This document shows, piece after piece, positions 11,199 through 35,526 of a stretch of DNA of 64,000 nt (position 1 is the stretch's first letter; every line of letters begins with the position of its first letter). Under the pieces are notes generated by a model. The model saw only the letters and a program-made list of their open reading frames with translations, was not told where the DNA came from and searched no databases. The translations under genes and the position numbers were made by a program. Origin of the DNA: a virus. The stretch covers positions 29,134-93,133 of the IMG/VR virus record IMGVR_UViG_3300014208_001433; one strand, 5' to 3'.

Positions 11199-14100
11199 AT
11201 GTTTTTATATAAGTTACCGGATTATGAAGGGGGATTTGTTACTAAATCTATTGAGTGCAATTGCATAGTAACAAGAGATGCAAACGGGCACTTGCTGGAC
11301 AGTAAACCGGTTAATTGTGTAAAGAAGGGAGTGAAAACAAATTTTGGAAAGGTTGTGGATTATTCGAAGAATTTTGTAATTCTGAAAAAAGGGACTGAGC
11401 TTAAAAGGGTGAAAAGGGAAGTTCTGAATAATATTTTGTTAAAGAGTTTGGAACAACCCGAGATAACTTTAGAAAAGATAAAGGTATCGGGAAAATTTAA
11501 TACACTTGCGGGGAAAGTGTTGGTAAAAAGTGAAAGTGAAATTGTTAGGGATGTATTAACTGATCCCGATAAAGTTTTGAGTAAGGGGAAAAGTGTTATT
11601 TTTTCTAAGACGATAAATGGGAAAGAGGTTGAGGCTAAGGTTGAGAAAACCTCAATGTTTATGAATACGTTTTTACATAAAAGTATAACCGTAAAGGAAA
11701 GTGTTGCGGCGAAAAGAATTTTAATAAAGGGAATTGCAACAACGCTTAGAGCGCCGAAGGTGTTTAATATTCAGTCGGCAGTCGGCAGTAGGCAATCGAC
11801 AATGGGTGGAACTGCATGGAACGCGAAAGGGGGAATGAAACCGAATCATAAGTACATTGAACGGAAACCGGCGAAAAGTGGAGACGGGTATATTTATCTG
11901 TATGAACTCCCTTCCGGTAAAAAGGAATGGAGAGATGAAGCGGGAAAAGCTGTTGAGGGGGGACAGACGAGCGCCGATTATCAGTTGGAAGATTTTAAGG
12001 TGGGCGACATTGTTAGGCAGGATAATAAACTCGGCCGGATAATGGAAGCATCAACAAATATGCTTGCGGTAAATTTCGGCGGGGAAATGAAGGTGATCAA
12101 CAAAAAAGAGCATGTTGAAAAGGTTAAGCAGCATCAACTAATGAAGGAAGGGGCCACGATGCAGTATGAGGGGAACGATGCAAAGATATTGAGGATAACC
12201 GGCAAAGCGGCATTGATAAACACGGCTGATAATAAGCTAAAGGTGATCAATCTTGAAAAGCAGTTGGAGAAATACGAACCGAAGAAAGAGGAGAAACGGT
12301 TAAATAAATACAGTGATGTTTACCAGGGTGAAGCGGAGCGAAGGATAGGGAGCGGGGGAGCGGATAATTACAACATCAGTTATGAAGAGCAGCCTAAGTA
12401 TAAAAATTTTGTTGACGCGGCGAAGAAAACGGGATTTGGGAGAAAGAACGATCTTGAAATGGTGAAGCGCGTTGAAACGGAAAACGGGCTTAGAACGGTA
12501 AGGTGGAACTATAACCCGGAGGATCAGAATATTAGTTTTATGGTTGACGGGAAAGAAGATTATACTATGAATTTTATGGGGAAGAAGTATAAAATAAGGG
12601 ATATTACGGAAGACGGTTACAGTTTGGAAGATGCAGAAACTAAGGAACGGGGATTGTTCCTTTCTCACAAAGATTATAATAATGATTTGAAACAACAAAG
12701 AGACGAGGAGAGAAAGAATGTTGTAGTTGAAAGAACGGGAGGGGTGAACGGATTTGAAACGGTTAAAGAACCGGCGCGAACTTTTAGGTTTAAACCGGAA
12801 TACAGTGATGAAGAAAAAGAAAGGTTTGAGAAACGAGGGGGAAGAAGACCGAGCCGATGGACGCGAAGAAAAGATGAACCTTTGCAAAGCGAAGAGGAGA
12901 AGAAACGATTAACTGAATTGCAGGACGAGAGGGATAAAAAGAATAAGGAAGTTTTGGGAACGAAGGATTTTGCAGACTTTGAGAAGTTACACAAAGAGAG
13001 AGGCTTTACAATTGGTGCAAATAGATTCCATGCAGCAAAAGAAATTGAGGCAGGCGGAAGAACATTCAGAATAAAGAGTGAGTTTAAGCCGGAGAAAATG
13101 AGCTGGCAGACTTCCATCGATGGACCTGTTAAGAAATTGCAGTTGGGAGAAAAACATTTACCGATAACGGATATTTCAAAAGATAAAGTTTTCTACCACG
13201 AAGGGGGGGATGAAAAAAGTATAACCTTTGATGAGTTGAAAACGATTAACGGCAAGAGTTTGTTTGAACCCACAAAAGAGAGTAAAGGAATTGTAAGTAA
13301 TTTAGATCCGGTGAAGATATATTTTGACGATAAAGATGTAACGAGCGGGACTTATGAAATTGTTGAAGCTAATGAAATAATTGCTTCCCACAAAACGGAT
13401 GGAACGCCAAACAGAGATTACACGATATCAGACGCGCAAAATAGAGACCGCAGCACTCCGCAAAGTATTGCACAAATAAACAAGATCGCAGCGAATCCGA
13501 ATTTTGACTTTTTAAGCGACAGTAAGACCGCGCAGGACGGCGCACCCATTGTTGATGAAGATTATAACGTAATTGCCGGGAACGGGCGGGGAATAGGCGT
13601 ACAGCTTCATTACAGCAACAAAGGGGAGAAGTATCGAAATGATCTGTTGAAAAAGGTTGAGAAGTACGGTTTTAGTCGAGACGATGTTGAGAAGATGAAA
13701 CAGCCTATTTTGGTAAGGCGAACGAATGTTGACGCAAAAGAGGCGCAACGATTGGGAGCAATTAGCAATACCTCACAGATGCTTGCAACAGAGGAACGGG
13801 AAGCGGCAAAAGGAAAGGCAACAAGAATTGATGACGCTACAATAAATAATTTAGCCGATATGTTCACAAAAGGGAACCATGAATCACTTAATCAATATTT
13901 GGATGAGATTGGACCGGATGTGGTAGGTGAGTTACTGAAGAAGAAAATTATCCCGGAGAATGAAGCGCACTTGTATATTGACCCGAAGAGCGGGAAAATG
14001 GATGCAGGGCACAAAGAAAAGGTTAAGCAAATATTAACGCAATCGGTTTTGGGAGAGAGCAGTAAGCATTTTGAGAAGATACCGGAAGCGGCGAGAGCGG

Positions 14101-16295
14101 GAACGGTTAAAAGTCTTGGAGATATTTTTGCGCTGAAGGGGAAAGCGGGTGATCTTGTTCCTCACTTACAGGAAGCGATAAAGGTTTTAGCAAAGTATGA
14201 AGCGGTTAAGAATAACTTTAAATCGCCGGATGATTTTGTTAAGCAGGCGGCAAATGACGCATTTGAACCGTTGAAAGGAAGTAAAGAAGGATTGGCTTTA
14301 TTTGATCTATTAGCAGACCCGATAAGAGAAGTAACGAAGGAAAACGGAAAGAAGGAAAAGAAAAACGTAATAAGTGATTTTATCCGTAAATATAAGTTAA
14401 GTTTAGAAGGGGATATGTTTGGCGAAGGCAAACCGGCGAAGGAAGCGTTTGATGAAGTGTTCAAGCCGAGGTACGAGAAGGGAGTGAATAAGAGTTTGTT
14501 TAGCAGATTGCGTATATTTGGTAAAAAAGTTTTTATGAAATCTGTTGATACGACAAAGAATATTTTAGCGCCGAGTAAAAAGAATCCGGGTGTAAAACGT
14601 TGGCAAAAGGTTGAGAGCGGAAAGTTGAAAGTTGCAAGTGGAAAGGTTGAGGATAAAACACAAGTGACAAGTGACAAAAAGCAAGGGGAAGAAAAGATAC
14701 GACTAAAAGATGTAACAAAATGGCATGAATACACAAAAGGAAGAATGATTGAAACAATTAGAAAAAATGCCGTAGAAGGATTAAATAAAGAAATAGATAA
14801 ACATCAAGCAGAAATCAAATCATATGTATATGTTCCCGATCCTTATGATTTTCGTGATACAGAGAACCCAATAGAAATTAGTTTCTCGGGAAAAGAAAAA
14901 ACAGGACAACCTATAATTATCAGGAATGGATTTGAATATAAATTTGCATATCAGAGCAATAAATACGATAGATATGATAGATCACTCACAGATAAAGAGA
15001 TGCAAGAAAAAACAGACAAGAAGAAAAAAGACATCCAATGGTTGATTGATTATAATAAAAAGAAAATTGACGATATTAATAATGGTTTGATAGATAATAA
15101 ATTGTTTGACGAAGAGCAGAAAAGAATTGCAAAAGAAAAAGACGACCGAGAAATTGAAATCGCAAATAAATTCTATCCAAGTAAAAGTCTTTCCCGATCT
15201 TTAAGGGATATAACAGGAAAGAAACTAGGTTTGTCTTTGCACGACTTTCATGATGCAAAGGGTAATTCGGCGTATATAATAACTGATAAATTTAAAATAC
15301 GATTTTCTGATCATGAGAGTAGAACTGAACAGGATTTCTATAGATTGGATGAAAAGGATAAACCTTTTCGTCCAGTTGAATATGAACCAGAGGACATTGA
15401 CATAATAATTTACAAAGACCGGAGAGGGGACGCTGTTGTTACAATCGATGGGAATAACTATGGAATTGCGGATTATAATATTGATTCAATTGAAGATTTA
15501 AGCGAGTTCATACTTGAAAAGATAAATAAAAAAGTCGTTGATTCCGTAGAACCAACGACTACAAATGAAAGCAAACCACAATCGCTTAAGACAGAGCCGA
15601 ACGCTAAAAGCGGAGCGGATGACTTAGGCAGTGATAAACGTGCCGAAGCACAGACGAAAAGTAGTGAAGAGAAAGGAGAAAAGCAAATACCGCAAACGGA
15701 GACGGAGAATTTTAAGAAGTGGTTTGGGGAGAGTAAGGTAGTGGATAGTGAGGGGAAGCCGTTGGTGGTTTATCATGGCAGCAAAACACAGTTTGAGGTA
15801 TTTGATAAAGTAAATGGCGAATCATCATCTTCCGGTAGATTTGAAGGGTTTCACTTTGGGACATTAGACCAAGCCAAAATGCGGAACGGTAAAATGGTTA
15901 TGGCTCTGTTTCTAAAAGCTGAAAAATTACAACGGAGTAAAGATGAAGGAGGTAGGTGGTGGAAGAAAATTCAATCTGCAAAAAGTAGAAATTATGATGG
16001 CATAATTTATTTGAACAGATATGAAGGCATCCCTCTTGAAGAATATGATGAAGCAGAAAAACGAGGAGTTAAAACAGATGCCGATTCGCTTGATCGAATG
16101 AGTGATGAGCAATTTAGAAAAAATTTCCCATCAGCAAAAGATAGCTATATCGTTTTTTCTCCAACTCAGATTAAATCCGCTATTGATAATGACGGAAGTT
16201 TTGATCCGGAGAATGCGGATATTACCAAGGGGACGAAAATAACGAGGCGGATAATATTTAAGAAAAAGAAGAAGGATGAAACTTTTTTATTGTAG
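11199..16295 (+). CDS. Large polyvalent protein (1698 aa): DdrB-like ParB domain plus C-terminal ART-PolyVal-like domain
   Basis: About 13350-13780: YEIVEA..IIASH...QNRDR...GAPIV...GNGR (DdrB-ParB type). About 15696-16220: TENFKKWFGESKVVDSEGKPLVVYHGS...SYIVFSPTQIKSAIDNDGSFDPENADI. Confidence 0.75.
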   Translation: MFLYKLPDYEGGFVTKSIECNCIVTRDANGHLLDSKPVNCVKKGVKTNFGKVVDYSKNFVILKKGTELKRVKREVLNNILLKSLEQPEITLEKIKVSGKFNTLAGKVLVKSESEIVRDVLTDPDKVLSKGKSVIFSKTINGKEVEAKVEKTSMFMNTFLHKSITVKESVAAKRILIKGIATTLRAPKVFNIQSAVGSRQSTMGGTAWNAKGGMKPNHKYIERKPAKSGDGYIYLYELPSGKKEWRDEAGKAVEGGQTSADYQLEDFKVGDIVRQDNKLGRIMEASTNMLAVNFGGEMKVINKKEHVEKVKQHQLMKEGATMQYEGNDAKILRITGKAALINTADNKLKVINLEKQLEKYEPKKEEKRLNKYSDVYQGEAERRIGSGGADNYNISYEEQPKYKNFVDAAKKTGFGRKNDLEMVKRVETENGLRTVRWNYNPEDQNISFMVDGKEDYTMNFMGKKYKIRDITEDGYSLEDAETKERGLFLSHKDYNNDLKQQRDEERKNVVVERTGGVNGFETVKEPARTFRFKPEYSDEEKERFEKRGGRRPSRWTRRKDEPLQSEEEKKRLTELQDERDKKNKEVLGTKDFADFEKLHKERGFTIGANRFHAAKEIEAGGRTFRIKSEFKPEKMSWQTSIDGPVKKLQLGEKHLPITDISKDKVFYHEGGDEKSITFDELKTINGKSLFEPTKESKGIVSNLDPVKIYFDDKDVTSGTYEIVEANEIIASHKTDGTPNRDYTISDAQNRDRSTPQSIAQINKIAANPNFDFLSDSKTAQDGAPIVDEDYNVIAGNGRGIGVQLHYSNKGEKYRNDLLKKVEKYGFSRDDVEKMKQPILVRRTNVDAKEAQRLGAISNTSQMLATEEREAAKGKATRIDDATINNLADMFTKGNHESLNQYLDEIGPDVVGELLKKKIIPENEAHLYIDPKSGKMDAGHKEKVKQILTQSVLGESSKHFEKIPEAARAGTVKSLGDIFALKGKAGDLVPHLQEAIKVLAKYEAVKNNFKSPDDFVKQAANDAFEPLKGSKEGLALFDLLADPIREVTKENGKKEKKNVISDFIRKYKLSLEGDMFGEGKPAKEAFDEVFKPRYEKGVNKSLFSRLRIFGKKVFMKSVDTTKNILAPSKKNPGVKRWQKVESGKLKVASGKVEDKTQVTSDKKQGEEKIRLKDVTKWHEYTKGRMIETIRKNAVEGLNKEIDKHQAEIKSYVYVPDPYDFRDTENPIEISFSGKEKTGQPIIIRNGFEYKFAYQSNKYDRYDRSLTDKEMQEKTDKKKKDIQWLIDYNKKKIDDINNGLIDNKLFDEEQKRIAKEKDDREIEIANKFYPSKSLSRSLRDITGKKLGLSLHDFHDAKGNSAYIITDKFKIRFSDHESRTEQDFYRLDEKDKPFRPVEYEPEDIDIIIYKDRRGDAVVTIDGNNYGIADYNIDSIEDLSEFILEKINKKVVDSVEPTTTNESKPQSLKTEPNAKSGADDLGSDKRAEAQTKSSEEKGEKQIPQTETENFKKWFGESKVVDSEGKPLVVYHGSKTQFEVFDKVNGESSSSGRFEGFHFGTLDQAKMRNGKMVMALFLKAEKLQRSKDEGGRWWKKIQSAKSRNYDGIIYLNRYEGIPLEEYDEAEKRGVKTDADSLDRMSDEQFRKNFPSAKDSYIVFSPTQIKSAIDNDGSFDPENADITKGTKITRRIIFKKKKKDETFLL

Positions 16296-16381
16296 GTGAA
16301 AAAAAGATTATTTAAGTTAACATATAACATTTTATATGAATTAACACAACAAACAACAATAACTCTAAAGGAGAAAAGACC

Positions 16382-16846
16382 ATGTTACAATTCCCATTAC
16401 TCACCGATGCCCAGGTTGCGGCAAAGGATTTTATGAATCAAGGAGATACTTTAAAAGCGTTAGACCTTTTGCAGAATCTTCCTTACGTAAACGTTTCCGC
16501 CGCATTAGCTGCGGGTGCAACGGGCGTAACTACAAATGAGCACATCTTTGTAGCGCCGTGCAAATTGGAAATTTTGGAAGCGAAGTTCATCACTACTGTA
16601 ATTAACACCGGTACAAGCAACGAACCGGAAGTAAAATTGCTTGCGGGCACCGACATTGTTGGTGTTAGCGGTGCAATTATCTTAGCAGGCGCAGCAGTTG
16701 GTGATGTTGCAACGTTAACGCTTGATGCAACAAAAGTTGTTGTAGCGGCAGGGACAAAACTTATTCTTAGAATAGTTAATCCTACTGCAACAATTACTAC
16801 TCCGTTAACCGGAAAGCTTCAGTTCATCTGGAAACCAACTGTTTAG
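16382..16846 (+). CDS. Putative virion decoration/structural protein
   Basis: Strong AAGGAG SD; Ala/Thr/Val-rich beta-type sequence; followed by a terminator. Confidence 0.5.
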   Translation: MLQFPLLTDAQVAAKDFMNQGDTLKALDLLQNLPYVNVSAALAAGATGVTTNEHIFVAPCKLEILEAKFITTVINTGTSNEPEVKLLAGTDIVGVSGAIILAGAAVGDVATLTLDATKVVVAAGTKLILRIVNPTATITTPLTGKLQFIWKPTV

Positions 16847-16863
16847 TTCATTAGTACGGTTGT

Positions 16864-16900
16864 AAGTGGTTAGTAGTAATGTGTGACTAACCACTTTTTT
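16864..16900 (+). terminator. Rho-independent terminator
   Basis: aagtggttagt...actaaccactt followed by a T run. Confidence 0.75.
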
Positions 16901-16932
16901 AATTACGAATTCTCAATTAGGAATGAGGAATT

Positions 16933-17565: not shown

Positions 17566-17577
17566 TTAGGAATAGGA

Positions 17578-17697
17578 ATGAACGGCAGGATGAGAATAGG
17601 CGAAGCTAGGTTTAGTTACTGGACAAATAGAGAGAGAAAAGAAGTTGCCGGGAATGAAGATCAATTTAATTTATTCACCCAGACCGAGGCAGCGTAA
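17578..17697 (+). CDS. 39-aa ORF absent from the ORF track
   Basis: MNGRMRIGEARFSYWTNRERKEVAGNEDQFNLFTQTEAA*. TAATG-coupled to the next gene, with the same gaggcagcgtaatg junction as the end of the first methylase. Confidence 0.45.
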   Translation: MNGRMRIGEARFSYWTNRERKEVAGNEDQFNLFTQTEAA

Positions 17698-20600
17698 TGA
17701 AATTATTTGGAATGACAATAGCAAAGAGTAAAGATAAACCGAAATTGCTTAAAGCATTCGGGGTAATATTAAAAGCCTTCGGTACGCAGTTAGGAATGTT
17801 TAATGATGAAGTGATTGAAGGGCAGACGAAGCAGAAAGACGGGCACAGCTATGTAGTTAAGAGAAGTAACAAGAATCCTCTTGTAAAAAGATTATTCAGG
17901 GCGGATAAGGAGGAGAGTAAGCCGAAGGAACTGAGTTTGTTTGATAAGAAAGTTACAGTAGGCAGTCGGCAATCGGCAGTCGGCAATCGGGCAGAAAGTA
18001 AACCACCGAAAGCGGAACCAATAAGACACACAGAGCAACCGGAAGCAAAGGACGATCTCTTCAATCAACCAAAGGAAGAGAGAAAAGAGCCGAAGGCAGA
18101 AATTAAAGTTGTTAAGGGGAAGAAAAACCGTAAAGAGATTAACGCTAAGGTTGAGGAGTTATTAAAGACAAAGAAAAATGATGAGATGAGCGCTGAGGAT
18201 GTTGAATTATTAGCGCAGTACACCGGACGCGGCGGATTGTTAGGAGATACGCTTGAGGATATCTCGCTTAATGAATTTTACACACGTAAGGATGAAGCGG
18301 AATTTATTTGGGATATGATAGGGAAGTTAGGTTTTAAGGGAGGAAATGTTTTAGAGCCTTCGATGGGAACGGGAATTTTTGTTGAGACAGCACCGGAGAA
18401 AGCGCTTGTAACCGGAATTGAGATTGAGGAGACGAGTGGAAGAATCGGACAGATTTTACACGGCAATGAACACGATATCAGAATTCAGAGTTTTGAACAG
18501 TTTGTAAAAGACTATGATAATATGGGAGCGGATTTAGAAGGGGGAGAATATGACGCGATAGTTGGGAATTGTCCGTTTGGTAAAAGGGGATTGAGCGCAA
18601 TGGATGATAGGGAAAAGAGCGATATAAAATTCCATGAGCAATATTTTATTGATCGAGGTTTGGATATGTTGAAGCCGGGGGGGATAATGGCAATGATCGT
18701 TCCAACAAGTATAATGGATAACCAACTTAATCAATGGCGGGGAGAGGTAAACAAAAAAGGGGAATTTTTAGGAGCAATACGAGTACCAACCGGAGCATTC
18801 AAACACACAGACGCGCAAGTAACCACAGATATAGTTTTCTTTAAGAAAAGACCGCCGGAAGTAATTGATCACTTGAACAAACTTTCCAAGGAAGAACTTG
18901 GGGAAGCTTATGACGATATGGTAATGGATGCTGATTTTGTTTCGGGGAATTTCTTTAAGAATAATCCGGAGTATGCATTGGGCACGGAAACAAGCGGAAT
19001 GTTCGGAATGAAGATTTGGAAGGGAGATATTACAAAGGCTGATCTTGAAAAAGTCGGTGAGTTATTAAACCATGAGGCAAGAGATTACAGCAGTTTAGGA
19101 ATTGATGTTAGTAAATATGGTGAGTTAGAAAAAGAACTTGAACCGGGAGATGTAAAGATATTAAACGGAAGAACTTACATACTTAATAAAAACCATAGAT
19201 GGGAAAGATTGAAAGATCAGGAAGTAGTATTACAAAACTTACCGGAAGACATTAAAAAACTTGGTATTACGAGTTGGGATGAATGGAGAATTAAGAGTGA
19301 GGACACAGCTTATTTATACGGTTTGGATAAGGACCAACTTAAACTTTTCGGACAAACAAGAATAGTTAATGAGCTGGATGGATACAACGGCAAGAATGAT
19401 TTTCAGACGGAATATTTAACAAAGGGAGTTGTGTTAGGTTTAGCAGTAAAGGATTTCAGAAAAGAGTTGCAAGACGGAAGATTATCCGCTGAAGAGGCGC
19501 AAATGGAAGCGGGGAAACTGAAGATATTGCTAAAGGATTTTATTGAAAAGTATGGACACCCGATTGAGAATTTAAAGTTAAATAAATTTTTTAAGAACAG
19601 CGGAAACGCGCCACTTCTTAATTTGGCAGGTAGCTATGATAAGAACGGCAACACTATCAAGATGTTTGATGATCCGCTGTCTTTTTATAAAGTTTATCAA
19701 ACGAAGAGCGAAATAGGAACAGTTGATAGGAATAATATTGTTTCGGTAATCGGTTTTCTTTTTGCAAATAATTTTCCAACGGATTATCAAACGGTACGAG
19801 GCGAGTATGAGGGGGATGGAGATATTGAAAGAGAGCTTGCATATAGCGATGAAATTTATTTTGATGAAGAAGGAAATTATAAACCGAAAGAGGAAGTCCT
19901 TTACGGTTACATTTACGAAAAAATTGACGCTTGGGAAAAGCAACGAACCGAACTGAAGAAGGAATCCAAGAACGAAAAGTTAAGCGATAAAGAAAAAGAA
20001 CTTAACGCGCAAAAAATGCGAAAGCTCGAAGATCAGATAATTGAGGCGAAGACGAGAGCGAATATCAGGGAGATTAAGCAGCTACCAATAATGTTAAGCG
20101 ATGCAGGGAGTATTTACGATATTGGTATTTTAAACAAATATTTGGAAGAAAAGATAGGGGCGCATTTCTTAGGTGAATTACGCAAAGATGAAAAGAGTGG
20201 TTTCATTCTTCCGGTTGATGAGAGTTCGGCAAAATTATATTTAAGTTATGCAGATATTACGAAAGAGGGGAAATCAACAGATGTAAAACGGGAATTGCGG
20301 GATCTCTTTAATAAAGATGAGCATCCGTTGTTATTTATGATTTTAAATAAGATGAATGGATTAGGTTTACCGGCATTACGGACAGAGGAAGGGATTGCTA
20401 AGAAAGAACAAGTCTTACAACTTGAAACAGATTTTAAGCAGTATTTATCCGATAGTGAAGAAGCTGATAAAATTGCAGATACTTATAACAGGTTGTTTAA
20501 TTCTTACATACAAAAAACGTATGATGAAAAACCGATAGAGGGAATAAAGCATTTTGCTTATGATAGAGTAGTTGGAAAAGACGCAAGCGGAAAAGATATA

Positions 20601-24187: not shown

Positions 24188-24191
24188 CATA

Positions 24192-24641: not shown

Positions 24642-25124
24642 ATGGAAGTGTGTGACGTAGACGAGGAAGTGTTAGAAAAGTTAATAAAAGAATTTACTGA
24701 TGAATTTGGTGAAGAAGTGCTTAAGGAGGTTTACCGATTTCACCGGAAATTAGCTAATAAAATGTATGTGAAGAATTTTCCGGCAGCGGAAATTTATCAT
24801 AGACTTTTGATTAAAGATATCCGCAATGGTAAGTATGCAAATATGAGTGTACGTGCAATTGCGGCGATTGAAAAGGTTAGTGAAGGTACGATCTATAACA
24901 TTATCGGGAAAGCGTGTAGAGTTAAGAAACCGATTTATCAATACTCGGTTAGGGGTAAATTAATAAAGAAATGGAACAGCGGAACGGAAATAGAAAAAGA
25001 ATTGGGCTATAATGCAAGTCCAATACGGGCAAGCTGTAGAGAGGGGAACGATAGAGCGACTTATGGTTTTGTTTGGAGATACCAGGAGCTAACGGGAGAA
25101 GAACTTTTGGCAATTAGGAATTAG
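24642..25124 (+). CDS. DNA-binding protein: Mor-like HTH plus NUMOD1-like domain
   Basis: MSVRAIAAIEKVSEGTIYNII helix-turn-helix, then KPIYQYSVRGKLIKKWNS..E....G.....I..SC......YGFVWRY. Confidence 0.65.
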   Translation: MEVCDVDEEVLEKLIKEFTDEFGEEVLKEVYRFHRKLANKMYVKNFPAAEIYHRLLIKDIRNGKYANMSVRAIAAIEKVSEGTIYNIIGKACRVKKPIYQYSVRGKLIKKWNSGTEIEKELGYNASPIRASCREGNDRATYGFVWRYQELTGEELLAIRN

Positions 25125-25167
25125 GATAAAGTTTACATTATTTTTACAAGATAAAAAGGAGCTTCAA

Positions 25168-25715: not shown

Positions 25716-27092
25716 TTGAATAACACGTTTGAATTTTTTGCACCGGCTTATTTGGTTAAAAGCGGAAGTAAAACCGAACCTTACAAGGTTGGCGGAACAA
25801 TTTCTACAGAGAACCGGGATACTGATAATGAAATAATGAAGAGTATCGATTGGAGTTATTTCACTTCCGGTTTTGGCAAAATTAAATACGAACATAAGGA
25901 TATCCCAGAACCGCATTGTTTTATTGGCTTTCCGACAAAGTTAGGGAAGAGCGGGAAATCATGGAACTTTGAAGGAGAACTTGTTGCATACGATCCGGAA
26001 TTGCCGGATGAGAAATTAACACAACAGCAAAAACTTGCAAAAAGCACGGTTACTCTTTTACAGCACATGGATGAATTTAATAAACGTCATCCAAATGCGA
26101 TGCAAAAAGCGGGATGGAGTGTTGAGGGAGAATATTTGTCGAAAAGCAAGGACGGGGTTGTTTCGGCAAGAGTTGTAAATGTAGTATTTACAACTAAACC
26201 ACGGAACAGAGAAACGTTTGCAAAATTAGTTAAGAGTTTAGAAGTGGGGTATGGAATGACACCCGATACACAAACGGGATTTGGGGCGACAAGAAAAGAA
26301 TCAATTGATCATAACATTAAACTAAATGGAGTTACAAAAATGGAAACGAAAAATGATGTGTACAAAAAATGCTTAGCCAAAGGGATGAAACCGGAAGAGG
26401 CTAAGAAAGCGGCTGATGAATTTGAAGCAAAGCAAAAAGGAGAGATGAACGAAAGTTTTGAGACCGCTGCAAAATCATTGGGCACGGCGAAATTATCTCT
26501 TCAAAAATCGCTTGATACAGCTAAATCAATCTCTGAAATAGAGTTTGAAGTTGATATTAAAGCGCAGGAAAAAAGTTTGCAAAAATCAATCGCGCTGATG
26601 AACAAAGGCGGAGAAGAAGCAGATATTTCCGATTACCTTGAAAAATCCTCTGAAATTTCTTTGAACGCATTGAAAGCGCTGGACGCAATTAATCAAAAAG
26701 TTGATCTGTTGGCAAAATCGATTGTTCTTTTAGCAGAAGGACAGTTGAATCAAGTCTCAGGTGATGAACATTTGGTAAAATCTCTTGATTTGGTGAATAA
26801 CCAAGTTGAAGATCAACGGATGGGACTTTTAACCTTGGTGAGCAAGCTTAGAAAAAGTACCGGCAATAATTTGTTGACCGACAATATCACTTTTGCTGAA
26901 AACAACAAGGATTTAGGGACAGGCGTAGAACTTAACAAAGCGCAAAAAGTAAAAGTGCTTGAAAAATTGGTTGCGGAAAAATCGGTTGACGAAATTGTTT
27001 TGGTTGACTTTAGCGCCGGTGGTACACAGGCAACTTTGCCGGAATCGGTTGAACAGTTGGTGAAATCAAAAGCTGTTGACATGTTCAAGTAA
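25716..27092 (+). CDS. Prohead protease fused to a scaffold-like domain
   Basis: ST.NRD.DNE, IKYEH, GWSVEG and VVFTTKPRN protease motifs; helical C-terminal half with many xxKS motifs; directly precedes the capsid gene. Confidence 0.85.
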   Translation: MNNTFEFFAPAYLVKSGSKTEPYKVGGTISTENRDTDNEIMKSIDWSYFTSGFGKIKYEHKDIPEPHCFIGFPTKLGKSGKSWNFEGELVAYDPELPDEKLTQQQKLAKSTVTLLQHMDEFNKRHPNAMQKAGWSVEGEYLSKSKDGVVSARVVNVVFTTKPRNRETFAKLVKSLEVGYGMTPDTQTGFGATRKESIDHNIKLNGVTKMETKNDVYKKCLAKGMKPEEAKKAADEFEAKQKGEMNESFETAAKSLGTAKLSLQKSLDTAKSISEIEFEVDIKAQEKSLQKSIALMNKGGEEADISDYLEKSSEISLNALKALDAINQKVDLLAKSIVLLAEGQLNQVSGDEHLVKSLDLVNNQVEDQRMGLLTLVSKLRKSTGNNLLTDNITFAENNKDLGTGVELNKAQKVKVLEKLVAEKSVDEIVLVDFSAGGTQATLPESVEQLVKSKAVDMFK

Positions 27093-27160: not shown

Positions 27161-28594
27161 ATGGACGATTTAATGTTTGGCGAACTTGCCGTAAACGGAT
27201 CAGCTTATGGCGGCGCATCAACAGTAAAAGAACTCCAGGACTTAGCCAAAGCTCTTGAGGTTGGTTATGCGATGGGGACAACGGACCAAACCGGATTTGG
27301 AGCCACAAGACTTGAAAGCCTTGACCCGGTTGTAAAATGGCTTACCCTAAACGAATCTTCCCCGGCATTCTTTAGAGCAATACGAAAAGGGAAGGCTTCC
27401 AGCACGGTTGAAGAATTTGTAACCATGAATGAGGTAGGAGATGCTAATTTTTATTCTGAAGGCGGATTACCGGACGAATATGATGAAGATATCCGAAGAG
27501 AATTTGAGCAGGTAAAATACATCGGAACCGTAGGTAAAATTCCTTTGCAGGCTTTAATGGTAAAAAGCAATACCAATAACGAAGCGCTTGTTACAAGAGC
27601 CAAAGCACTTGCGATAATGAAAACCGCAGATAGCAAAATAATCTATGGTGATGCTGCTCGTAATCCTTACGAATGGAATGGTTATTACAAACAATTTAAA
27701 ACAAAAGCAAAGAATGTAAGCCAAAACACAATTGATTTGCGCGGTAAACGTGTTAGACCGGAAACCTTAAATGAATCGGTACAAATTATTGCCGATAACT
27801 GGGGAAACGCAAATAACGTAAAATGCTGGATGAGCGCCAAAGATTTTCAATTTTATACCGATGAATTGTTAGCCGGTAGAAGATTTGTGGTAGGAAGTTC
27901 TGAAGCCCGTGATCTTATCGCTTCCGCGAAAAGATTTGAACTTGGGAACGGAAAAGGAAATATTGAAACCGATATTCTTTTGAAATACAAGGGTCAAAAT
28001 TATATAGGCGCAGAGTATCCTAAAACAAACACCGCGATGACAGTATTTGCAGCAACAAACAGCAAAGCACCAGCCACCCTTAACTCAAGCACTGCAACTA
28101 TTTCAGTTGATACTGATGCAGCTACCTTGCTTGACGCAGCAACTTACGATTACGCATTTGTACCGGTTAATAAATACGGTGCGGGCGCAGCATTTGAAGT
28201 TAAAACAAACGTTGTTGCAGCTTCTAAACGCTGTACTTTTACCTTAACTGATAACGGTTCACCTTCAGGACAAGAAGCAACAAGTTTTGATATTTACCGT
28301 AAACTTTCATCCGCAACTGCAATTACAAGTTATAGATATTTAACTTCGTTTACAGCAGCCGAAGCAAAGATCGATAACGGTGAATGGATACCGGGAGCGA
28401 CTAATATTTTCTTATGGGATTGGGACTTTGAACAAGTACTCGATTTCCGTCAATTACTGCCAATGACTAAGATGGGATTGGCTCAAATTGATGATTCCAA
28501 GAGATGGATGCAAAAATTATGGGCAGTGCCGATTCTTGTAGCACCAAACAAAATGGTGATGATAAAGAACGCGGGTTCTACTGCTTGGGCTTAA
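27161..28594 (+). CDS. Major capsid protein (SPO1/Twort-like)
   Basis: KALEVGY...QTGFGATRLESLD N-terminus, ASSTVEEF, IDLRGK, inserted beta domain (YDYAFVPVNKYG...FDIYRK), QLLPMTKMGLA and IKN C-terminus. Confidence 0.9.
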   Translation: MDDLMFGELAVNGSAYGGASTVKELQDLAKALEVGYAMGTTDQTGFGATRLESLDPVVKWLTLNESSPAFFRAIRKGKASSTVEEFVTMNEVGDANFYSEGGLPDEYDEDIRREFEQVKYIGTVGKIPLQALMVKSNTNNEALVTRAKALAIMKTADSKIIYGDAARNPYEWNGYYKQFKTKAKNVSQNTIDLRGKRVRPETLNESVQIIADNWGNANNVKCWMSAKDFQFYTDELLAGRRFVVGSSEARDLIASAKRFELGNGKGNIETDILLKYKGQNYIGAEYPKTNTAMTVFAATNSKAPATLNSSTATISVDTDAATLLDAATYDYAFVPVNKYGAGAAFEVKTNVVAASKRCTFTLTDNGSPSGQEATSFDIYRKLSSATAITSYRYLTSFTAAEAKIDNGEWIPGATNIFLWDWDFEQVLDFRQLLPMTKMGLAQIDDSKRWMQKLWAVPILVAPNKMVMIKNAGSTAWA

Positions 28595-28680: not shown

Positions 28681-29112
28681 ATGGTTAAGCATACATACCT
28701 TAAAAATTTAACGTTAAATGTACCAACTTCCGTTAACAGTACGGGCAAACTTCACTTGGATGAAGACGGTTGTATAGTTGAGGAATTGAGTTTTGAGCAA
28801 GAGAGCGAATTGATTGATCACCCGGATTTTGTTACAGTAGAAAGTGAAAAGTCGCAAGTAGAAAGCAAAGAGTTGCAATCCGCCGAAGGCGGAGAAAGTA
28901 ACGATCAAGAGAACAACCAAGAGCAAGAAGAAAAAACCGCAGAGCAAGAGAGCGGAGAAAATTCTGAAGGGAAAGCCGGGGAACAATCCGAAGACGAACT
29001 AAAAGAATTGGATACTAAAATTGTAAACGGGAAAGGGTTCATCTACAAGAAAAACGTGAAAGATGTTTTGATGTGGTTACGGCATCCAGAGCTTGATGAA
29101 AAGGGTAAATAA
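28681..29112 (+). CDS. Acidic hypothetical protein (head module)
   Basis: GAGG SD; Glu/Gln-rich linker. Confidence 0.6.
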   Translation: MVKHTYLKNLTLNVPTSVNSTGKLHLDEDGCIVEELSFEQESELIDHPDFVTVESEKSQVESKELQSAEGGESNDQENNQEQEEKTAEQESGENSEGKAGEQSEDELKELDTKIVNGKGFIYKKNVKDVLMWLRHPELDEKGK

Positions 29113-29472: not shown

Positions 29473-29481
29473 AGATGTGCA

Positions 29482-30558
29482 ATGAAGACAATAAAAAAAG
29501 GGATTTCACAACTTATAACCCTTGATCAGACATTATTAGGCAGCGGAAAACACGTTTACTTGACGATGATCGGTGAAGACGGTTCGGTGATTAAAAACTC
29601 TTCAGCGGCAGATATAAAAGATTTATCACTTTCCTACAACGCAACTTCATCTCTCTATGAAGCAGCCGTAACTGTAGCCTCGGATGAGCCGGAACAATAT
29701 GTCCGGCTCTTCTTTTATGCTACAGACGCGAACGTAGAGAATAAATATTATCCGGAAGATGCAAAATTGGAAGCAGTAGCCGGCATAATTACAACCGAGG
29801 CTGAAATTGTACCGGTACAGTTTTTTATTGATTATGTTCTGGCTTCTTCAAGCAGATTAGACCCGGCGTATGAAGCGGCGATAACGGCTTTTTCGGAGGA
29901 TAGAGCGGGATTAAGAAGTTACTTAAAGAGCGCACAAGATACTCTTGAAAAACAATGCGAGCTTTATTTTACCGAACGGACAAAGACCGAGAACCGTGAT
30001 AATTATTTTGAAAAATTCAGTATGAATCTTTGGCAAATACAAGTTTATAACCCACCAATAAATGATTTAACAAGTGTAAAGATAAAGTACGGCAATACCG
30101 AGTTAATGGGTATTGGTGTTGATCTTTTTACGTTTGACCGCATGACGGGAATAATTGAATTTTTACCTTTACCAACTGGTGGAACAGCAGGGCTTTATAC
30201 TTTGCTGTTAGGCAGTTTAAGCGCGTTGGGTTTATCTGTTTTAACCGGCGGAGCGCTGGAACGGATACCAAACTTTTTTGAGGTAACGTACAAAACGGGG
30301 TTAGTTTATGCAGGCGCAGACCCGTTTGAAGTTGAAGGGATAAGACAGGCTATTTGCCGCAGAGCATTCCTAAGTTTGGTCCATCATGTAGATCCCGCGG
30401 CAAGAGTAGTTAGCGAAAGTGAAAGCATTGACGGAGTTGCAAGCAGTATTAGTTCGGGAGTTGCTAAGGTAATTACCGAACTGAAACAGGACGAAGTAAG
30501 TTATTTAAACGGTTTGCGGCAGAAGTACGGGAAGAACTTTAATGTAGTTATCGGGTAA
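29482..30558 (+). CDS. Head-tail adaptor/connector
   Basis: Position; IPNFFEVTYKTG and SESESIDGVASS motifs typical of these adaptors. Confidence 0.6.
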   Translation: MKTIKKGISQLITLDQTLLGSGKHVYLTMIGEDGSVIKNSSAADIKDLSLSYNATSSLYEAAVTVASDEPEQYVRLFFYATDANVENKYYPEDAKLEAVAGIITTEAEIVPVQFFIDYVLASSSRLDPAYEAAITAFSEDRAGLRSYLKSAQDTLEKQCELYFTERTKTENRDNYFEKFSMNLWQIQVYNPPINDLTSVKIKYGNTELMGIGVDLFTFDRMTGIIEFLPLPTGGTAGLYTLLLGSLSALGLSVLTGGALERIPNFFEVTYKTGLVYAGADPFEVEGIRQAICRRAFLSLVHHVDPAARVVSESESIDGVASSISSGVAKVITELKQDEVSYLNGLRQKYGKNFNVVIG

Positions 30559-30709
30559 TTAGGAATTAGGAATTAGGAATAAACTTGGAACAATATTTTG
30601 AAGCCGTTAGAAAATTGCCGGTTGGGGATTGGAAAGTAATTGCGGAGTTCCATAGGATAATTATGAATTATAAAAAGATGAAGCGGTTAGCTGATAAGCA
30701 TAAAATAAA

Positions 30710-31501
30710 ATGTTAAAAATTATTGATGAAAATATTGTACGGAGTCTAAGACGGTTCGGGCAAACGGTAAAGCATTACCCGGGCACGTTGTGCAGTTGCA
30801 TTGGTGAAAATAACGGTGTGCCGTTATTAAACCATACTTGCAACCAGGGTTATTATTACGGAGCGCCGGAAACAATTATTGCAATACGCACGGCGATATC
30901 TTACAAATACCTAAACACGCCGCAAGGGGTAATTTATGACGGAGGCGCAACATTTACCATCCCAAGATTGAATTTAAGCGGAGCCGAACAGAGAGCTTAT
31001 TCTGTTATTACGCACGGAGATATTTTGGTTTGTGATAATAAGACCAGACGTGACACAGATATACTGAAGCGTGGAACCCGTGATTTTATTTACGCTTTTG
31101 ATATTACCGAAGTAATTGGCATATACCGTAACAACACAAAATATGATGCAACGGATTACACAATTATTGAGGATGATTATAAAACGTTACTTGGTGATGA
31201 CGGTTTACCGCTTACCGATGAGAACGGAGTACCAACGGGAGAAGTAAGAGACAAAGCGGATATTGTGGGTAAATTAATGGCGGTTGTTTGGGCAACCGGC
31301 AAAGGACCGGCAACGGGTGAAAGTTACACGGTGGAATTCATTTGTGCTCAACAGTTTAAAGTATGGGAAGATGCGGGAAGTGATAGGGGAACGGATGAAA
31401 ACAGACTACCGAAAAAGATGCTTACCGTATTAAGAAGATTTGTTACACCGGTGGAAAATAACCTTGACACCGTAGAAACGACACAGGAGTTGTACACATG
31501 A
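30710..31501 (+). CDS. Neck/head-closure protein
   Basis: CSC...HTCNQGYYY Cys motif and position, as in Herelleviridae-like neck genes. Confidence 0.55.
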   Translation: MLKIIDENIVRSLRRFGQTVKHYPGTLCSCIGENNGVPLLNHTCNQGYYYGAPETIIAIRTAISYKYLNTPQGVIYDGGATFTIPRLNLSGAEQRAYSVITHGDILVCDNKTRRDTDILKRGTRDFIYAFDITEVIGIYRNNTKYDATDYTIIEDDYKTLLGDDGLPLTDENGVPTGEVRDKADIVGKLMAVVWATGKGPATGESYTVEFICAQQFKVWEDAGSDRGTDENRLPKKMLTVLRRFVTPVENNLDTVETTQELYT

Positions 31502-34500
31502 TAATTACATTATTTGGAAAGTCAATAAAATTTGGGAAGAACCCGAACCAGATAGATATGTTTGCAACCGCCGGAGCGGAAAAGGAATTTGCGCCAGGGG
31601 ATAAACGCAGACTTGAACTTACAAGCGGCGGGAAGTTGCGTTGGAAGAATGCGGATGAGGAAGGGAGTGGAAAGTTGAAGGTTGAAAGTGGAAAGAATGC
31701 AACTCCGAACAATCAAAACATTAGAGAGGAAAAAGGTTTATTCAAAGAAGCGTATGAACAAACGCAAGATGAATATGCGCAAAAGATGTTCAGAGGACCA
31801 ATAGCTGAAGTTAAAAAATTTAAAGACCCGAATGATTTGGAAGATATTGCAATCTCTAACGAACAGCACAAAGTTATTATTAAACACGCTATTCGAGAAG
31901 GTAAAGAGATCCCGGATGCAGTAATTGAACCTTACAAAAATTCGCATTGGGCGAAGGAATATTTGAGTAAAAAAGTTGATTACTCACAAGAGCTTATAAA
32001 CACCGCGCAAACAAGTAAGACTTTCGATAAGTTTTTAACAAATGTTAGAATCCATGTATTCCCAAACGAGTTTCTTAAAAAAGAGTTGGGGTTAGGAGAT
32101 GACAACGTACAAAATAGAAAAAAACTTAATGACTATTACAACAGGCAAAAAGCAGAGCATAGAGAACAACGTAAAAAAGATAAAGAAGAAGGGGATAAGG
32201 CAATTGCCGAATTGCATGTAGATCAAATAGAAAAATTAGCACTTCAACAGTATGGCGGGAAAGTGGGGAAAGAAAAAAAGATTGATGATGATAAAATTGC
32301 AGAGTTGTATAGGAATAGCCCGATATCTATTCAAGTGGATAAGATGAGCAATAAAGCGCAAGAAATTTATAATAACGCCGGGAACCAGGCAGAAAAACAA
32401 ATTGCATTTGATCTTTGGAATTATGGGAATGGGATACAGGATGAGTTTGTAGAAAAGTACGTTAAAGGGGAAAAGATAAGTACTGAAGATGTTATGGAAG
32501 TAAAGAGAATTGCAAACATATTGATAAAAGGCGCTGATGAAGAATTTGAGAAAGTAAAAAATGGGAGTAAGGCAAAAATTACGATCAAGAAAAAGAAAGA
32601 AGAGCCGGTTAAAAAAGAACCTTGGGAGAGAACTTTATCGGATATGATACAAAATGAAATTACAAACCGTGAAATTTTTGGACCGGAAAGTTATCCTAAA
32701 TGGATAACGGATAATACTAAAGTGGAAATTGCAGACCGAAGAACCGGAATTGTTTATGATCATTTTACTCTTGCAAGCCCAACACAGGAAAGATTAAAAC
32801 ATTATGGGAAACTTGCACATTATGAAATTATAAAGCGAGCCTTAGTTGACGGCAAGCCCGTACCGCCGGAAGTGTTGAGGGATTATCCGGAGTTGGAAAA
32901 GGAAACTTCACTTATAAGTGAATTACCTTTTACTGCATCATTAAAAAAAGATTTAGAAAGTTACGGCGAAAAGACAAAAAATATTTTAGTTGAAGGGACG
33001 TATCAACCATTTGCTGATTGGTTTAAGAAACAATACCCGGATCAAGAATTTAAAATCGGTAAACATCAAGATGGAGGACCATTTATCGCTATAACTGGAG
33101 GAGGAGAAATTAGATATTCAGCTTATCAGAAAGATAATTCTGAAAACGAAATAAAATTATCAAAGTTAAAAAAACGGAAAGAAGTTCTTGGGGAAAAACT
33201 TTACTCCGAGAAACTTAAAAATCACAAGAAAGTATCTAATATTGGTTTTGGCACAAATATGAGGGGATATCAAAAAACGAAACAATTAAGTTTTAGAAGA
33301 GAAGATGAATTGCAACAAAAAATAAAAGAGATTAACGAAGAAATAAAAGATTTATTACCAAAGAATGTTAGTGAATCAAATAAAAGCATCTTCAAAAATT
33401 TATTTAAAGCCTTTGGGAAACAAATATCAATGTTTGGAGCGCAGCCATATCAAAAGGAAGGGCAGACGAAAGAGGGACGCGGAGGCACGTTGAAATTAAC
33501 GAGGGACAGCTCGGGAAAGGGAGCGCATTGGAAGTTAGTCGGCAAAGGGCAATCGGCAGTGGACGGTCAGCAGTCGGCAGTTGGCAGTGGGCAAGAAAAA
33601 CAAACTGGCGGAAAGATAATTACTCCGGCTAATGCTTTTGAATTGTTGCAGGATAAAATTGGTAATAGTGTGTTACTGCAGGACAATGAAGGAAACTTGT
33701 TAGGTGAGGGAGCGTTACAGCTTGTGAACGAAAACAGTGAAGGCAATTATTCTTTGTTCTTAAAAGAGGCAAATGGATTTGATTCTCTCGTATCGATACC
33801 AAAGAACCAGGCAGTTGTACAGAAGGAAGACGGGATAAGTTTTAAGTTTGCAGATAAGAATATTTTAATATCAACAATTGAGAAAAGCAAAATTCCCAAT
33901 AAGCCGGTTGAAATGGAAAAAGCCGAAGAGAACGCGAAACATGCGCGTAACTTAGAGAAGATGCGGAATTTTAACGAATGGCAAAAGAAAGCCGACAGTT
34001 ATGCAAGAACAGCGAACGGGCAAAAGGATTGGTTTTTTGGTGATATGGAAATTGCCGCCGACGCTGAAGGTTTAGAGTTTGGAGTGAAGAACCGCATCAT
34101 TAAAAAAGCCGATACACTGTTTAAGGAAATAAAGAGGAACGCAACAAGGGATGATAAGGCTGAGATATACAGCGCACTAATCGGAGCATTTGAAGTGAAA
34201 AGCGTTGCTAAGGCAAAAGCTGTTATTTCCAACTTAAAGAAGAAGGGGTATGAAATAGACGCTGATCAGTTGGACCAACCGAAGGATAAAGAAAACTTTT
34301 TTACAAGGATAAAAATAAGCAAAGGGGAAAACGATCCTTTGCCGAAGGAGTTGCAGTTTGCAACCGGTGAATATGCCTTGGCATTTGAAGAGTGCGCGAA
34401 GAAACCAAATCCTTTAAGAGAAACAGAAATGAGTTTGGGCTTAAAGATCAATGCTGAAGGGGTGCCGGAGTTTAACACAATTAAGAAACAATTGTTTAAC

Positions 34501-35526
34501 CTGGCCGGAGAAGGATTGGGACAATTATGGGTTACGGGTGGTTTACCGGGAAGCGGAAAGAGCAGCACACTTGGAGGTGAGTTTTATAAAAACAAAGTTT
34601 TGATAGATCCCGACAAAATAAAATATATGCTTGCTGAGGAAAGAGGAATATCGCAAGAAGAGGTAAATAAAAAGCCTTGGGAATTGCATGAGGAAAGTTC
34701 GAATATTGCCAAGCATTTGGTCCGTGAAGCAATACGCGAAAAGAAAGATGTAATTTATGATGTTACCATGAAGGGGACGGAAAATTTAAACGATCTTCTT
34801 TACATGGTGAACAGCGATACTTTTCAGGCGAATGCTGAGTTTATTCATCTCCCGATTGAAAAGGGAATTGAGCGCGACAAAGCAAGAGGAGAAAGCGGCG
34901 GAAGAAGCATAGGCGCTGATCTGTATAAGAAATTGTTTGGTGGTTATCCTACACACAAAGCTTTTTTTGAGTTGAAGGATAGTTTTGATAATTTTAGAGT
35001 ATATGATAACAGCGCACCGTTGGGAGAAGGGGCAAAACTATTTTATGTAAAAAATGACGGACAAGAAAAAATATTGCACCCGGGAATTCACGATGAATTC
35101 AAGAAATTTGGTTTGAAGCAAATGGGGAAATCACTATATTTGAGATACCAAAGGAGAAAATTAGTGAAAGCAATCGAACCCACACCCAAAACAAACGAAA
35201 CCCAATTACCGGAAAGCGAAAAGTTAAAACTTCTTTTAGGTTTTAAAGAGCAAGGGATAGACCGGGACATTGATCCGGAACAAGATTTCTTTGCTTTGGG
35301 AATGCTGAAGATGCACGGATTGATCGATGAGAATATGAATCTAACACCGGAAGGTGAGCAGAAATATCAATTTCAATTTGGCAGTAAGTTTAGCAACATG
35401 AACGGAGAAGAAAGCGATGTTGAACAGGTCGTGAATCCGAGAAAAAATATTGCTGAAGAAAATAAAGAGAAAAAACCAGCCATAAAAGCATTCGGGAAAG
35501 AATTCAATAAAAAGAAACCTGAGTAA
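31498..35526 (+). CDS. Large polyvalent protein (1342 aa) with a C-terminal zeta-toxin-like P-loop kinase
   Basis: GGLPGSGKSS, LIDPDKIK, LHEESS, DVIYDVT, R..RGESGGRSI and FRVYDNS at about 34525-35050. Confidence 0.75.
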   Translation: MIITLFGKSIKFGKNPNQIDMFATAGAEKEFAPGDKRRLELTSGGKLRWKNADEEGSGKLKVESGKNATPNNQNIREEKGLFKEAYEQTQDEYAQKMFRGPIAEVKKFKDPNDLEDIAISNEQHKVIIKHAIREGKEIPDAVIEPYKNSHWAKEYLSKKVDYSQELINTAQTSKTFDKFLTNVRIHVFPNEFLKKELGLGDDNVQNRKKLNDYYNRQKAEHREQRKKDKEEGDKAIAELHVDQIEKLALQQYGGKVGKEKKIDDDKIAELYRNSPISIQVDKMSNKAQEIYNNAGNQAEKQIAFDLWNYGNGIQDEFVEKYVKGEKISTEDVMEVKRIANILIKGADEEFEKVKNGSKAKITIKKKKEEPVKKEPWERTLSDMIQNEITNREIFGPESYPKWITDNTKVEIADRRTGIVYDHFTLASPTQERLKHYGKLAHYEIIKRALVDGKPVPPEVLRDYPELEKETSLISELPFTASLKKDLESYGEKTKNILVEGTYQPFADWFKKQYPDQEFKIGKHQDGGPFIAITGGGEIRYSAYQKDNSENEIKLSKLKKRKEVLGEKLYSEKLKNHKKVSNIGFGTNMRGYQKTKQLSFRREDELQQKIKEINEEIKDLLPKNVSESNKSIFKNLFKAFGKQISMFGAQPYQKEGQTKEGRGGTLKLTRDSSGKGAHWKLVGKGQSAVDGQQSAVGSGQEKQTGGKIITPANAFELLQDKIGNSVLLQDNEGNLLGEGALQLVNENSEGNYSLFLKEANGFDSLVSIPKNQAVVQKEDGISFKFADKNILISTIEKSKIPNKPVEMEKAEENAKHARNLEKMRNFNEWQKKADSYARTANGQKDWFFGDMEIAADAEGLEFGVKNRIIKKADTLFKEIKRNATRDDKAEIYSALIGAFEVKSVAKAKAVISNLKKKGYEIDADQLDQPKDKENFFTRIKISKGENDPLPKELQFATGEYALAFEECAKKPNPLRETEMSLGLKINAEGVPEFNTIKKQLFNLAGEGLGQLWVTGGLPGSGKSSTLGGEFYKNKVLIDPDKIKYMLAEERGISQEEVNKKPWELHEESSNIAKHLVREAIREKKDVIYDVTMKGTENLNDLLYMVNSDTFQANAEFIHLPIEKGIERDKARGESGGRSIGADLYKKLFGGYPTHKAFFELKDSFDNFRVYDNSAPLGEGAKLFYVKNDGQEKILHPGIHDEFKKFGLKQMGKSLYLRYQRRKLVKAIEPTPKTNETQLPESEKLKLLLGFKEQGIDRDIDPEQDFFALGMLKMHGLIDENMNLTPEGEQKYQFQFGSKFSNMNGEESDVEQVVNPRKNIAEENKEKKPAIKAFGKEFNKKKPE

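Follow-up and report, generated by a model that had tools for sequence, protein, structure and literature searches.

A candidate junction cassette with prohead-protease-like sites in three polyvalent proteins of a metagenomic phage

Introduction

The polyvalent proteins of phages are giant strings of effector domains, such as ddrB-ParB, ART-PolyVal, the methylase-helicase dyad and InPase, which are encoded among the head genes and for which packaging and injection have been predicted (Iyer, Burroughs, Anand, de Souza and Aravind, 2017, PMC5512222). Neither their route into the capsid nor the way in which their enzymes come apart is settled, and the sole published proposal is processing by an embedded zincin metallopeptidase (PMC5512222). 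Rare C-terminal fusions to assemblin-like peptidases have been noted as well, which tie head proteases to polyvalent proteins in principle; junction sites are not described there (PMC5512222). The present analysis concerns a window of 64,000 nucleotides of phage DNA (IMG/VR record IMGVR_UViG_3300014208_001433; G000:C1:29135-93134), in which three giant proteins, here called A, B and C, share a candidate junction cassette, the tag, with a Phi-x-K↓S/A site at its start (Phi is a hydrophobic residue, and the arrow inside a peptide marks a predicted cut position).

The prohead protease gp21 of phage T4 cuts after Glu. The T4 capsid targeting sequence (CTS) combines an address with cleavage: the N-terminal peptide is short, and a prohead-protease site comes after it (Mullaney and Black, 1996, cited in PMC9024508 and PMC10052503). 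The tags of the window have no sequence similarity to the CTS and no Phi-x-E site pattern, and their motif ends in Lys; neither a relationship to the CTS nor a site for cleavage after Glu was found in them. The T4 tag is N-terminal only and is removed, whereas the cassette described here is found repeatedly within polyproteins, and the downstream product would retain most of it. In phage P1, the first 30 residues of DarB suffice to load a reporter into the head, and the authors found no consensus among the Dar proteins (PMC9024508). B is a DarB-like methylase-helicase too, but the recognisable tag described here is common to three cargo proteins and is associated with candidate cleavage sites. 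The ejection proteins of phiKZ-like phages and of the giant phage SPN3US carry N-terminal propeptides of 111-254 aa, in which the protease motif is repeated several times and which are cut into pieces (PMC10052503). Residues 1-190 of A resemble these propeptides, but the protease sites there end in Glu and not in Lys, and the SPN3US substrates lose N-terminal propeptides only, internal dissection into modules not being reported (PMC10052503). The T4 CTS, the P1 DarB signal and the phiKZ-type propeptides are already known kinds of system, and the junction cassette is a variant of these.

Three Polyvalent Proteins Among the Head Genes

The window belongs to the phage contig C1 (119.4 kb, 38% GC), whose genes are nearly all on one strand and which was binned in a metagenome-assembled genome (MAG) of 307 contigs; a search of deposited phages with this phage at the DNA level gave no match. 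The gene order is portal, giant A, a small methylase, giant B, protease/scaffold, capsid, giant C and then tail genes, and the head genes, the giants and every tag lie on the + strand (window coordinates throughout, unless stated otherwise). Giant A (11199-16295, 1698 aa) holds ddrB-ParB at aa 716-842 (Pfam, E 1e-26) and ART-PolyVal at aa 1516-1668 (Pfam, E 6e-15). Giant B (17697-23813, 2038 aa) is a DarB-like Eco57I-type adenine methylase combined with an SNF2 helicase (Pfam Eco57I and SNF2; PHROG DarB-like antirestriction, E 8e-105, with the family match beginning at aa 119), and giant C (31498-35526, 1342 aa) holds a Zeta-toxin/P-loop kinase at aa 1012-1172 (Pfam, E 2e-11). Both ddrB-ParB and InPase are listed as phage-only domains (PMC5512222).

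With at least two unrelated effector domains, family-specific ones included, in the Pfam and PHROG matches, and with a location among portal, capsid and late genes, A, B and C are phage-type polyvalent proteins, in which unrelated effector domains stand in one polypeptide. The original prediction had called the three giants unrelated. They are related in kind, all three being polyvalent proteins, and the claimed 15 kb or so of such cargo agrees with the 15.2 kb to which the three genes sum. The zincin motif (HExxH or HExxxH) was sought in A, B and C and none was found, nor was any peptidase family matched in Pfam or PHROGs; the giants therefore lack the means for the self-processing that has been proposed for polyvalent proteins. 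Processing in the published description is by a zincin, or rarely by an assemblin-like peptidase, whereas at the junctions of A, B and C the candidate site is that of a separate prohead protease, and the portable cassette is not among the LPD domains described there (PMC5512222). In the A family, a C-terminal ..KKKKDETFLL-stop (16230-16295) is kept although the middles differ, and this end may be another terminal signal.

A Shared Cassette in the Three Giants

A cassette of about 60 aa is common to B and C, and a degenerate copy of it is present in A. The aligned tags start at K↓S, continue with [IL]F.....KAFGxQ[ILV]x[MLI]F and then with EGQTK or GDKR, followed by ...G..L.L......[RH]W or KNPxVKRW, and pass into a low-complexity linker; the aligned sequences vary too much to be scanned for as a pattern. 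The N-terminal tag of B (aa 1-101, 17697-17999; E 1e-35 with the hidden Markov model (HMM) of the tag) reads MKLFGMTIAK↓SK..LLK↓AFGVILK↓AFGTQLGMF, then EGQTK..KNPLVKR and a SRQSAVG linker, the tag peptide at aa 16-101 being LLKAFGVILKAFGTQLGMF..EGQTK..KNPLVKR. The N-terminal tag of C (aa 1-75, 31498-31722; tag HMM E 1e-24) reads MIITLFGK↓SIKFGKNPNQIDMF, GDKRRLEL..GKLRWK and GKLKVESGK, and includes LFGKSIKFG..QIDMF. C has a further tag inside (aa 627-714, 33376-33639; tag HMM E 1e-37), which reads NK↓SIFKNLFK↓AFGKQISMF, EGQTK..GGTLKLTRD..GKGAHWK and a QSAVG linker (tag peptide NKSIFKNLFKAFGKQISMF..EGQTK), and it ends in a half-tag, ..PAIK↓AFGKEFNKKKPE-stop (35473-35526), which is kept in close relatives; LVKA at aa 1222 and AIKAFGK at aa 1328 stand near the same end. 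The internal tag of A (aa 1096-1155, 14484-14663; tag HMM E 6e-17, recovered also in a whole-genome search) is NK↓SLFSRLRIFGKKVFMK↓S..KKNPGVKRW..GKLKVASGK, and in this copy (NKSLF..IFGKKVFMKS..KKNPGVKRW) the Gln and Phe are missing. The peptides originally quoted from all three giants were each found at their place.

Within the phage's own proteome, leave-one-out HMMs join the B tag and the internal C tag reciprocally (E 6e-5 and 3e-4), while BLAST connects the A tag with C (E 0.02) and the shared KKNPxVKR connects it with B. The AlphaFold2 (AF2) model of the internal C copy has a helix at residues 5-22, a three-strand meander at 33-57 with a pLDDT of about 75-79 and a disordered linker below 50. 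A profile search of 1.84 billion representative proteins yielded only 21 clusters with the tag at E<=1e-3, one of which (P0033) resembles an unrelated repeat protein. The other domains of the tag-bearing clusters are InPase, ddrB-ParB, ART-PolyVal, HD, LPD1 and SNF2, and the position of the tag in these proteins varies between N-terminal and internal, with one to three copies. A Pfam search with the tag gave no family match, a search of 400 sampled genomes from the host phylum and of the rest of the MAG did not recover it, and the tag-bearing P0021 and P0035 were not found in IMG/VR. A comparison of related phages with an HMM of the tag had been suggested as a check; the exact tag was in none of 57 distant loci in which it was sought. 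A very basic open reading frame (ORF) of 61 aa after the post-portal gene (9809-9994) begins with MKNLLKKVKVFFKGLFPNIGKEV, which is loosely tag-like; the tag HMM missed it.

Tags at Module Boundaries

In the close relatives L001 and L004, an InPase module is inserted in B exactly between MKIFGITIAKSK and DKPKLLKAFG. The B of the window (17697-17760, compared with L001:502-1000) is without this 150-aa module between AKSK and DKPKLLKAFG, which was either lost or never present, and the presence or absence of InPase in B is a clean module indel at a tag. The B of L002 has an additional insert behind the linker, and that of L003 has different N-terminal modules. In the homologue P0006, the tag that is N-terminal in C is internal (aa 130) and stands behind a different module. 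Among 15 homologues of the internal C tag, the 30 upstream residues are unrelated, K-S is invariant and everything downstream is conserved; conservation of the tag begins exactly at K-S. These indels and swaps beside tags in relatives support the earlier claim that the tags lie at boundaries between effector modules. The B homologue of L003 (about 650-1900 of that locus) also carries an intein that splits methylase motif I (Hint and LAGLIDADG, Pfam E 9e-10 to 4e-5), which is absent from the B of the window.

The Lys-Ser/Ala Motif in Capsid, Scaffold and Giants

In the major capsid protein (27161-28594; PHROG E 2e-65), the xxK[S/A] pattern is present ahead of the N-terminal motif, as had been claimed (LAK↓A), and the predicted maturation cut is K30↓A31 (codons 27248-27253). 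The protein is about 27% identical to SPO1/Twort-type capsids, with PDB 9vel and 5lii as matches. The Twort-like capsid protein of 5lii (463 aa) is also that of PDB 9row (439 aa), whose chain starts at the Ser of VVK↓SFQTGYG, which aligns with A31 of the capsid protein. A literature search for the mature N-terminus of A511-/SPO1-type capsid proteins gave nothing usable and the PDB chain start was taken instead; the Lys cleavage of A511/K-type capsids, on which the original prediction had relied, is consistent with it.

The prohead protease is fused to the scaffold (25716-27092; PHROG head maturation protease). The fused protein has 17 [LIVFM]xK[SAG] sites against about 3.3 expected, and 18 K-S dipeptides were counted in it, in line with the more than 15 reported earlier. 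In the 30%-identical scaffold half of the L005 homologue (47% identical overall), 5 of 11 K-S were kept, against 1 of 10 other Ser. The segment KLVK↓SLEVGYGMTPDTQTGFGATR of the protease/scaffold is a copy of the capsid segment DLAK↓ALEVGYAMGTTDQTGFGATR. His60 and Ser135 of the protease are invariant in 8 diverse homologues, and a Pfam search with the protease gave no match. The copy of the capsid N-arm, K↓SLEVGYG..TGFGATR at aa 170-200 of the protease/scaffold (26223-26315; capsid aa 27-50, 27239-27310), directly follows the predicted cut site and is kept in every distant relative that was examined (K↓ALSAGYNTDS and the like). As a mimic, it may serve to incorporate the protease into the shell.

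Residues 1-190 of A (11199-11768) are scaffold-like and dense in Phi-x-K[S/G], and by this motif count they are a candidate propeptide. They hold 8 [LIVFM]xK[SAG] sites against 1.7 expected (p=1e-4), among them FVTK↓S, ILLK↓S, VLVK↓S, FLHK↓S and ILIK↓G, and the remaining part of A holds 5 against 8.4; four sites, K16↓S, K82↓S, K110↓S and K177↓G, do not vary among 5 homologues with identities of 75-81%. A Phi-x-K↓S/A site stands at every tag start, in this phage and in the homologues. These sites resemble the capsid site and share the motif that is enriched in the scaffold, which is the pattern expected of substrates of a Lys-specific prohead protease. With composition controlled for, the enrichment that had been proposed as a test appeared in the tags, the A N-terminus and the protease/scaffold but not in the giants over their whole length, and the proteome-wide test was therefore passed only locally.

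An 'xMF' link of the tags with the scaffold C-terminus (..AVDMFK) and the capsid N-terminus (MDDLMFGE) was considered and rejected as a firm link. MF occurs 54 times against 43 expected in the proteome, and the scaffold C-terminus varies in relatives (DLYK in L005, other endings elsewhere). The capsid propeptide itself starts with M..(hydrophobic)-F-(D/G), as in MDDLMFGE (27161-27185), MGLFDG, MAGFFDN and MDFFDN, and this start is conserved in L005, L011, L024, L025, L043 and L059, whose capsid proteins are only 24-46% identical.

Conservation of the Sites in Distant Loci

A metagenome scan gave the 57 loci mentioned above, which have the same layout and capsid proteins of 24-29% identity. All their capsid proteins keep Phi-x-K↓ALxxGYG. 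When 364 distinct ORFs were ranked by [LIVMF]xK[SA], the top nine (z 6-8.8) were exactly those just upstream of the capsid gene, so that all 9 protease/scaffold ORFs in this position in the related loci are enriched; polyvalent, post-portal and portal ORFs came next (z 3.3-5.4). The internal InPase modules have Phi-x-K↓S ahead of them in 12 upstream contexts, with a hydrophobic P3 in 11 of the 12, and free-standing InPase ORFs begin at the same position as the internal modules. A hairpin of the form KY[IL][RK]R..G.[WY].Y.Y ('KYIRR') has Phi-x-K↓S/A immediately ahead in 12 lineages; in A the pattern falls at aa 215-235, within HKYIERKP..GDGYIYLY at aa 215-245 (11841-11933), and a regular-expression survey over the loci found this form widespread in related phages. 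A site falls within the first 26 aa of 27 of 49 giants and of 71 of 340 other ORFs (Fisher p 1.6e-6, which is overstated as the sequences are related). N-termini of the form M-x-K-Phi-Phi-Phi-x-K↓S recur, such as MAKLVILK↓S, MGKLVIKK↓S and MLILLRK↓S, and those of this phage are MIITLFGK↓S and MKLFGMTIAK↓S.

Proposed Processing of the Giants

The reading preferred here is that the giants are built into the prohead and cut there by the head protease, at Lys↓Ser/Ala junctions, into separate enzymes; on the comparisons above it is given a probability of roughly 0.55. As strings of mutually unrelated effector enzymes, the giants would most likely be incorporated during prohead assembly and delivered together with the DNA. 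The strings would be assembled from modules by means of a portable cassette of three parts, namely a short hydrophobic peptide with Phi-x-K↓S/A at its end, an amphipathic helix that closes with Q-Phi-x-Phi-F and leads into a small three-stranded beta unit, and a floppy linker. Lys↓Ser/Ala is the putative recognition site of the phage's own prohead protease, which would cut the capsid protein at LAK↓A and itself at LVK↓S, and would shred the scaffold tail at many K↓S. Within the prohead the same protease would also cut the giants at their junctions and degrade residues 1-190 of A. The predicted products are separate enzymes, each of which would retain the helix and beta unit at its new N-terminus.

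Several points weigh against this proposal. The phage is known from metagenomes only, and the case for processing is drawn from sequence. The giants are not enriched for the motif over their whole length after composition control, and the proteome as a whole has 69 sites against 47 expected, the motif being short and frequent in Lys-rich helices. Some module boundaries are without a Lys motif, for example that of the extra ART-like insert in L002, and the conservation of K-S may reflect no more than the start of a folded unit. The AF2 model of the protease domain (pLDDT 46) is too poor for a fold search, which leaves the catalytic domain unconfirmed by fold, and the related loci are not independent, so that their counts overstate the support.

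The cassette had originally been presented as an 'address and cleave' system. Its 'cleave' half now has good comparative support, as no zincin is embedded in the giants and the junction motifs agree with it in module boundaries, in sites like those of capsid and scaffold, and at the junctions of distant relatives. The 'address' half is plausible but unproven, and it faces a serious rival. For polyvalent proteins in general, a junction cassette of about 60 residues with the head protease's own site would be a concrete and testable alternative to the embedded metallopeptidase. It would explain the shuffling of InPase, ART and kinase modules between related phages, and it might provide a portable handle by which foreign proteins could be brought into phage heads.

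Alternative Explanations

The Q-Phi-x-Phi-F pentapeptide of the tag may be a motif for binding the beta sliding clamp, and the tag an address used after injection and not in the prohead. This explanation is possible, at appreciably lower odds than prohead processing. The effector would then be tethered to the host clamp on the DNA or would compete with the host polymerases, and K↓S/A cleavage may still happen and expose the motif near the new N-terminus. QIDMF, QLGMF and QISMF of this phage match the consensus Q-L-x-L-F, with the same five-residue pattern and the same invariant Gln and Phe (PMC4549789). The B- and C-type tags of relatives all fit it as well (QISLF, QINLF, QLNLF, QMDLF, QLDMF), Gln and Phe being the invariant positions of the tag pentapeptide, and in a distant, GC-rich clade MLILLRK↓SQMGLF and MLVFFTK↓SQLALF occupy the corresponding place. 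DNA is what the cargo enzymes act on, and a cut at K↓AFG would leave the clamp-like motif 5-12 residues from the new end. As the most conserved part of the tag, the pentapeptide suits the host clamp consensus no worse than it suits a capsid address. A Q-L-x-L-F-like pentapeptide with Gln and an aromatic end is found in all B- and C-type tags. It is absent from the A-type tags, which lack Gln and Phe yet have the remainder of the tag, and the clamp pattern is not enriched in the giants of other clades (7 against 4.3 expected) and not strongly in this proteome (8 against 4.2). Unlike the described clamp motif (PMC4549789), the pentapeptide lies here inside a conserved helix-plus-beta cassette of predicted virion cargo, and in the AF2 model it stands at the end of a low-confidence helix (pLDDT about 55), not in free coil.

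The match to the clamp consensus offers a second testable idea, on the destination of the released enzymes in the host. In a combined version, which we consider doubtful, the head protease would act as a dispenser: each Lys↓Ser/Ala cut would expose an N-terminal beta-clamp-binding peptide, and the injected enzymes (methylase-helicase, ParB-like, kinase and ART) would dock on the host clamp as the DNA enters. If this were true, modules would be freely swappable between phages, because one cassette would join loading, cutting and host targeting. Upstream of the window (G000:C1:9776-9922), a very basic ORF of 48 aa ends in ..KKDKQQLEMF-stop, a C-terminal match to the clamp consensus, and could encode a small clamp-directed early protein.

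Alternatively, the tags may be inherited linkers, the seams of head-to-tail fusions between once-separate cargo genes that each brought an N-terminal peptide, and the giants may act uncut. This appears unlikely. P1 DarB, a virion protein of 250 kDa, is loaded by an N-terminal signal with no cleavage reported (PMC9024508), and the virion RNA polymerase of N4 is packaged unprocessed (PMC5512222); the N-terminal peptide may on this account still act as a packaging or ejection signal. The N-terminal position of the tag in some proteins and its internal position in others would fit fusion seams, as would the free-standing InPase ORFs that start where the internal modules do. However, the Lys at P1 and the hydrophobic P3 are conserved although they are part of an unrelated upstream module, which is expected of a protease site and not of a fusion scar, and the same motif is enriched in the scaffolds. 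Finally, it is very improbable that the beta meander (EGQTK..RW, KNPxVKRW, HKYIxR..Y.Y) is a nucleic-acid-binding or portal/DNA-escort unit, with K-S as part of its fold, by which each module stays attached to the packaged DNA and leaves the head with it: the meander is basic, moderately well predicted (pLDDT 75-79), the sole part common to all tag types, widespread in related phages and present also inside B at aa 484-505, but it matches no known DNA-binding family, and the scaffold-like site density of A aa 1-190 would be left unexplained.

Linkers and Heptanucleotide Repeats

The portal protein (6655-8454; PHROG portal) ends in a tail at aa 546-560 (nt 8290-8334) with a QAVGSDQSAVG repeat. 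Peptides of the type QSAVG(S/N)xQ are common to A, B, C and this portal C-terminus, while GKLKVxSGK is found in both A and C, and ORF 28681 contains a stretch that resembles it. These peptides are read from tandem heptanucleotides, (CAGTCGG)n and, in the array at 14620, (GAAAGTT)n, with the shifted register AGTTGAA in the array at 31666; the QSAVGSRQ linker of A is encoded by (CAGTCGG)n at 11772-11806. Three repeat units of 7 nt make seven codons, hence the 7-aa periodicity of the peptides (QSAVGSR, GKLKVxS). In relatives the repeat-coded peptides differ by 21 nt or are replaced, and QSAVG and GKLKVxSGK are therefore taken as linkers and not as signals.

Heptamer arrays within genes lie at 8290-8334, 11772-11806, 17956-17990 and 33537-33605, and also at 14610-14650, 31666-31695, 28836-28878 and 4624-4646; (GAAAGTT)n occupies 14620-14650, and Tandem Repeats Finder (TRF) gives other consensus units for other arrays. 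For the pattern MAGTNGNMAGTNG, 36 occurrences stand against an expectation of 8.8. The slip of a single 7-nt unit would shift the frame and could switch off the downstream modules. Outside the genes, AATTAGG heptamer arrays stand in short gaps just before gene starts, at 6003-6036, 9778-9799, 25112-25126 and 30557-30580.

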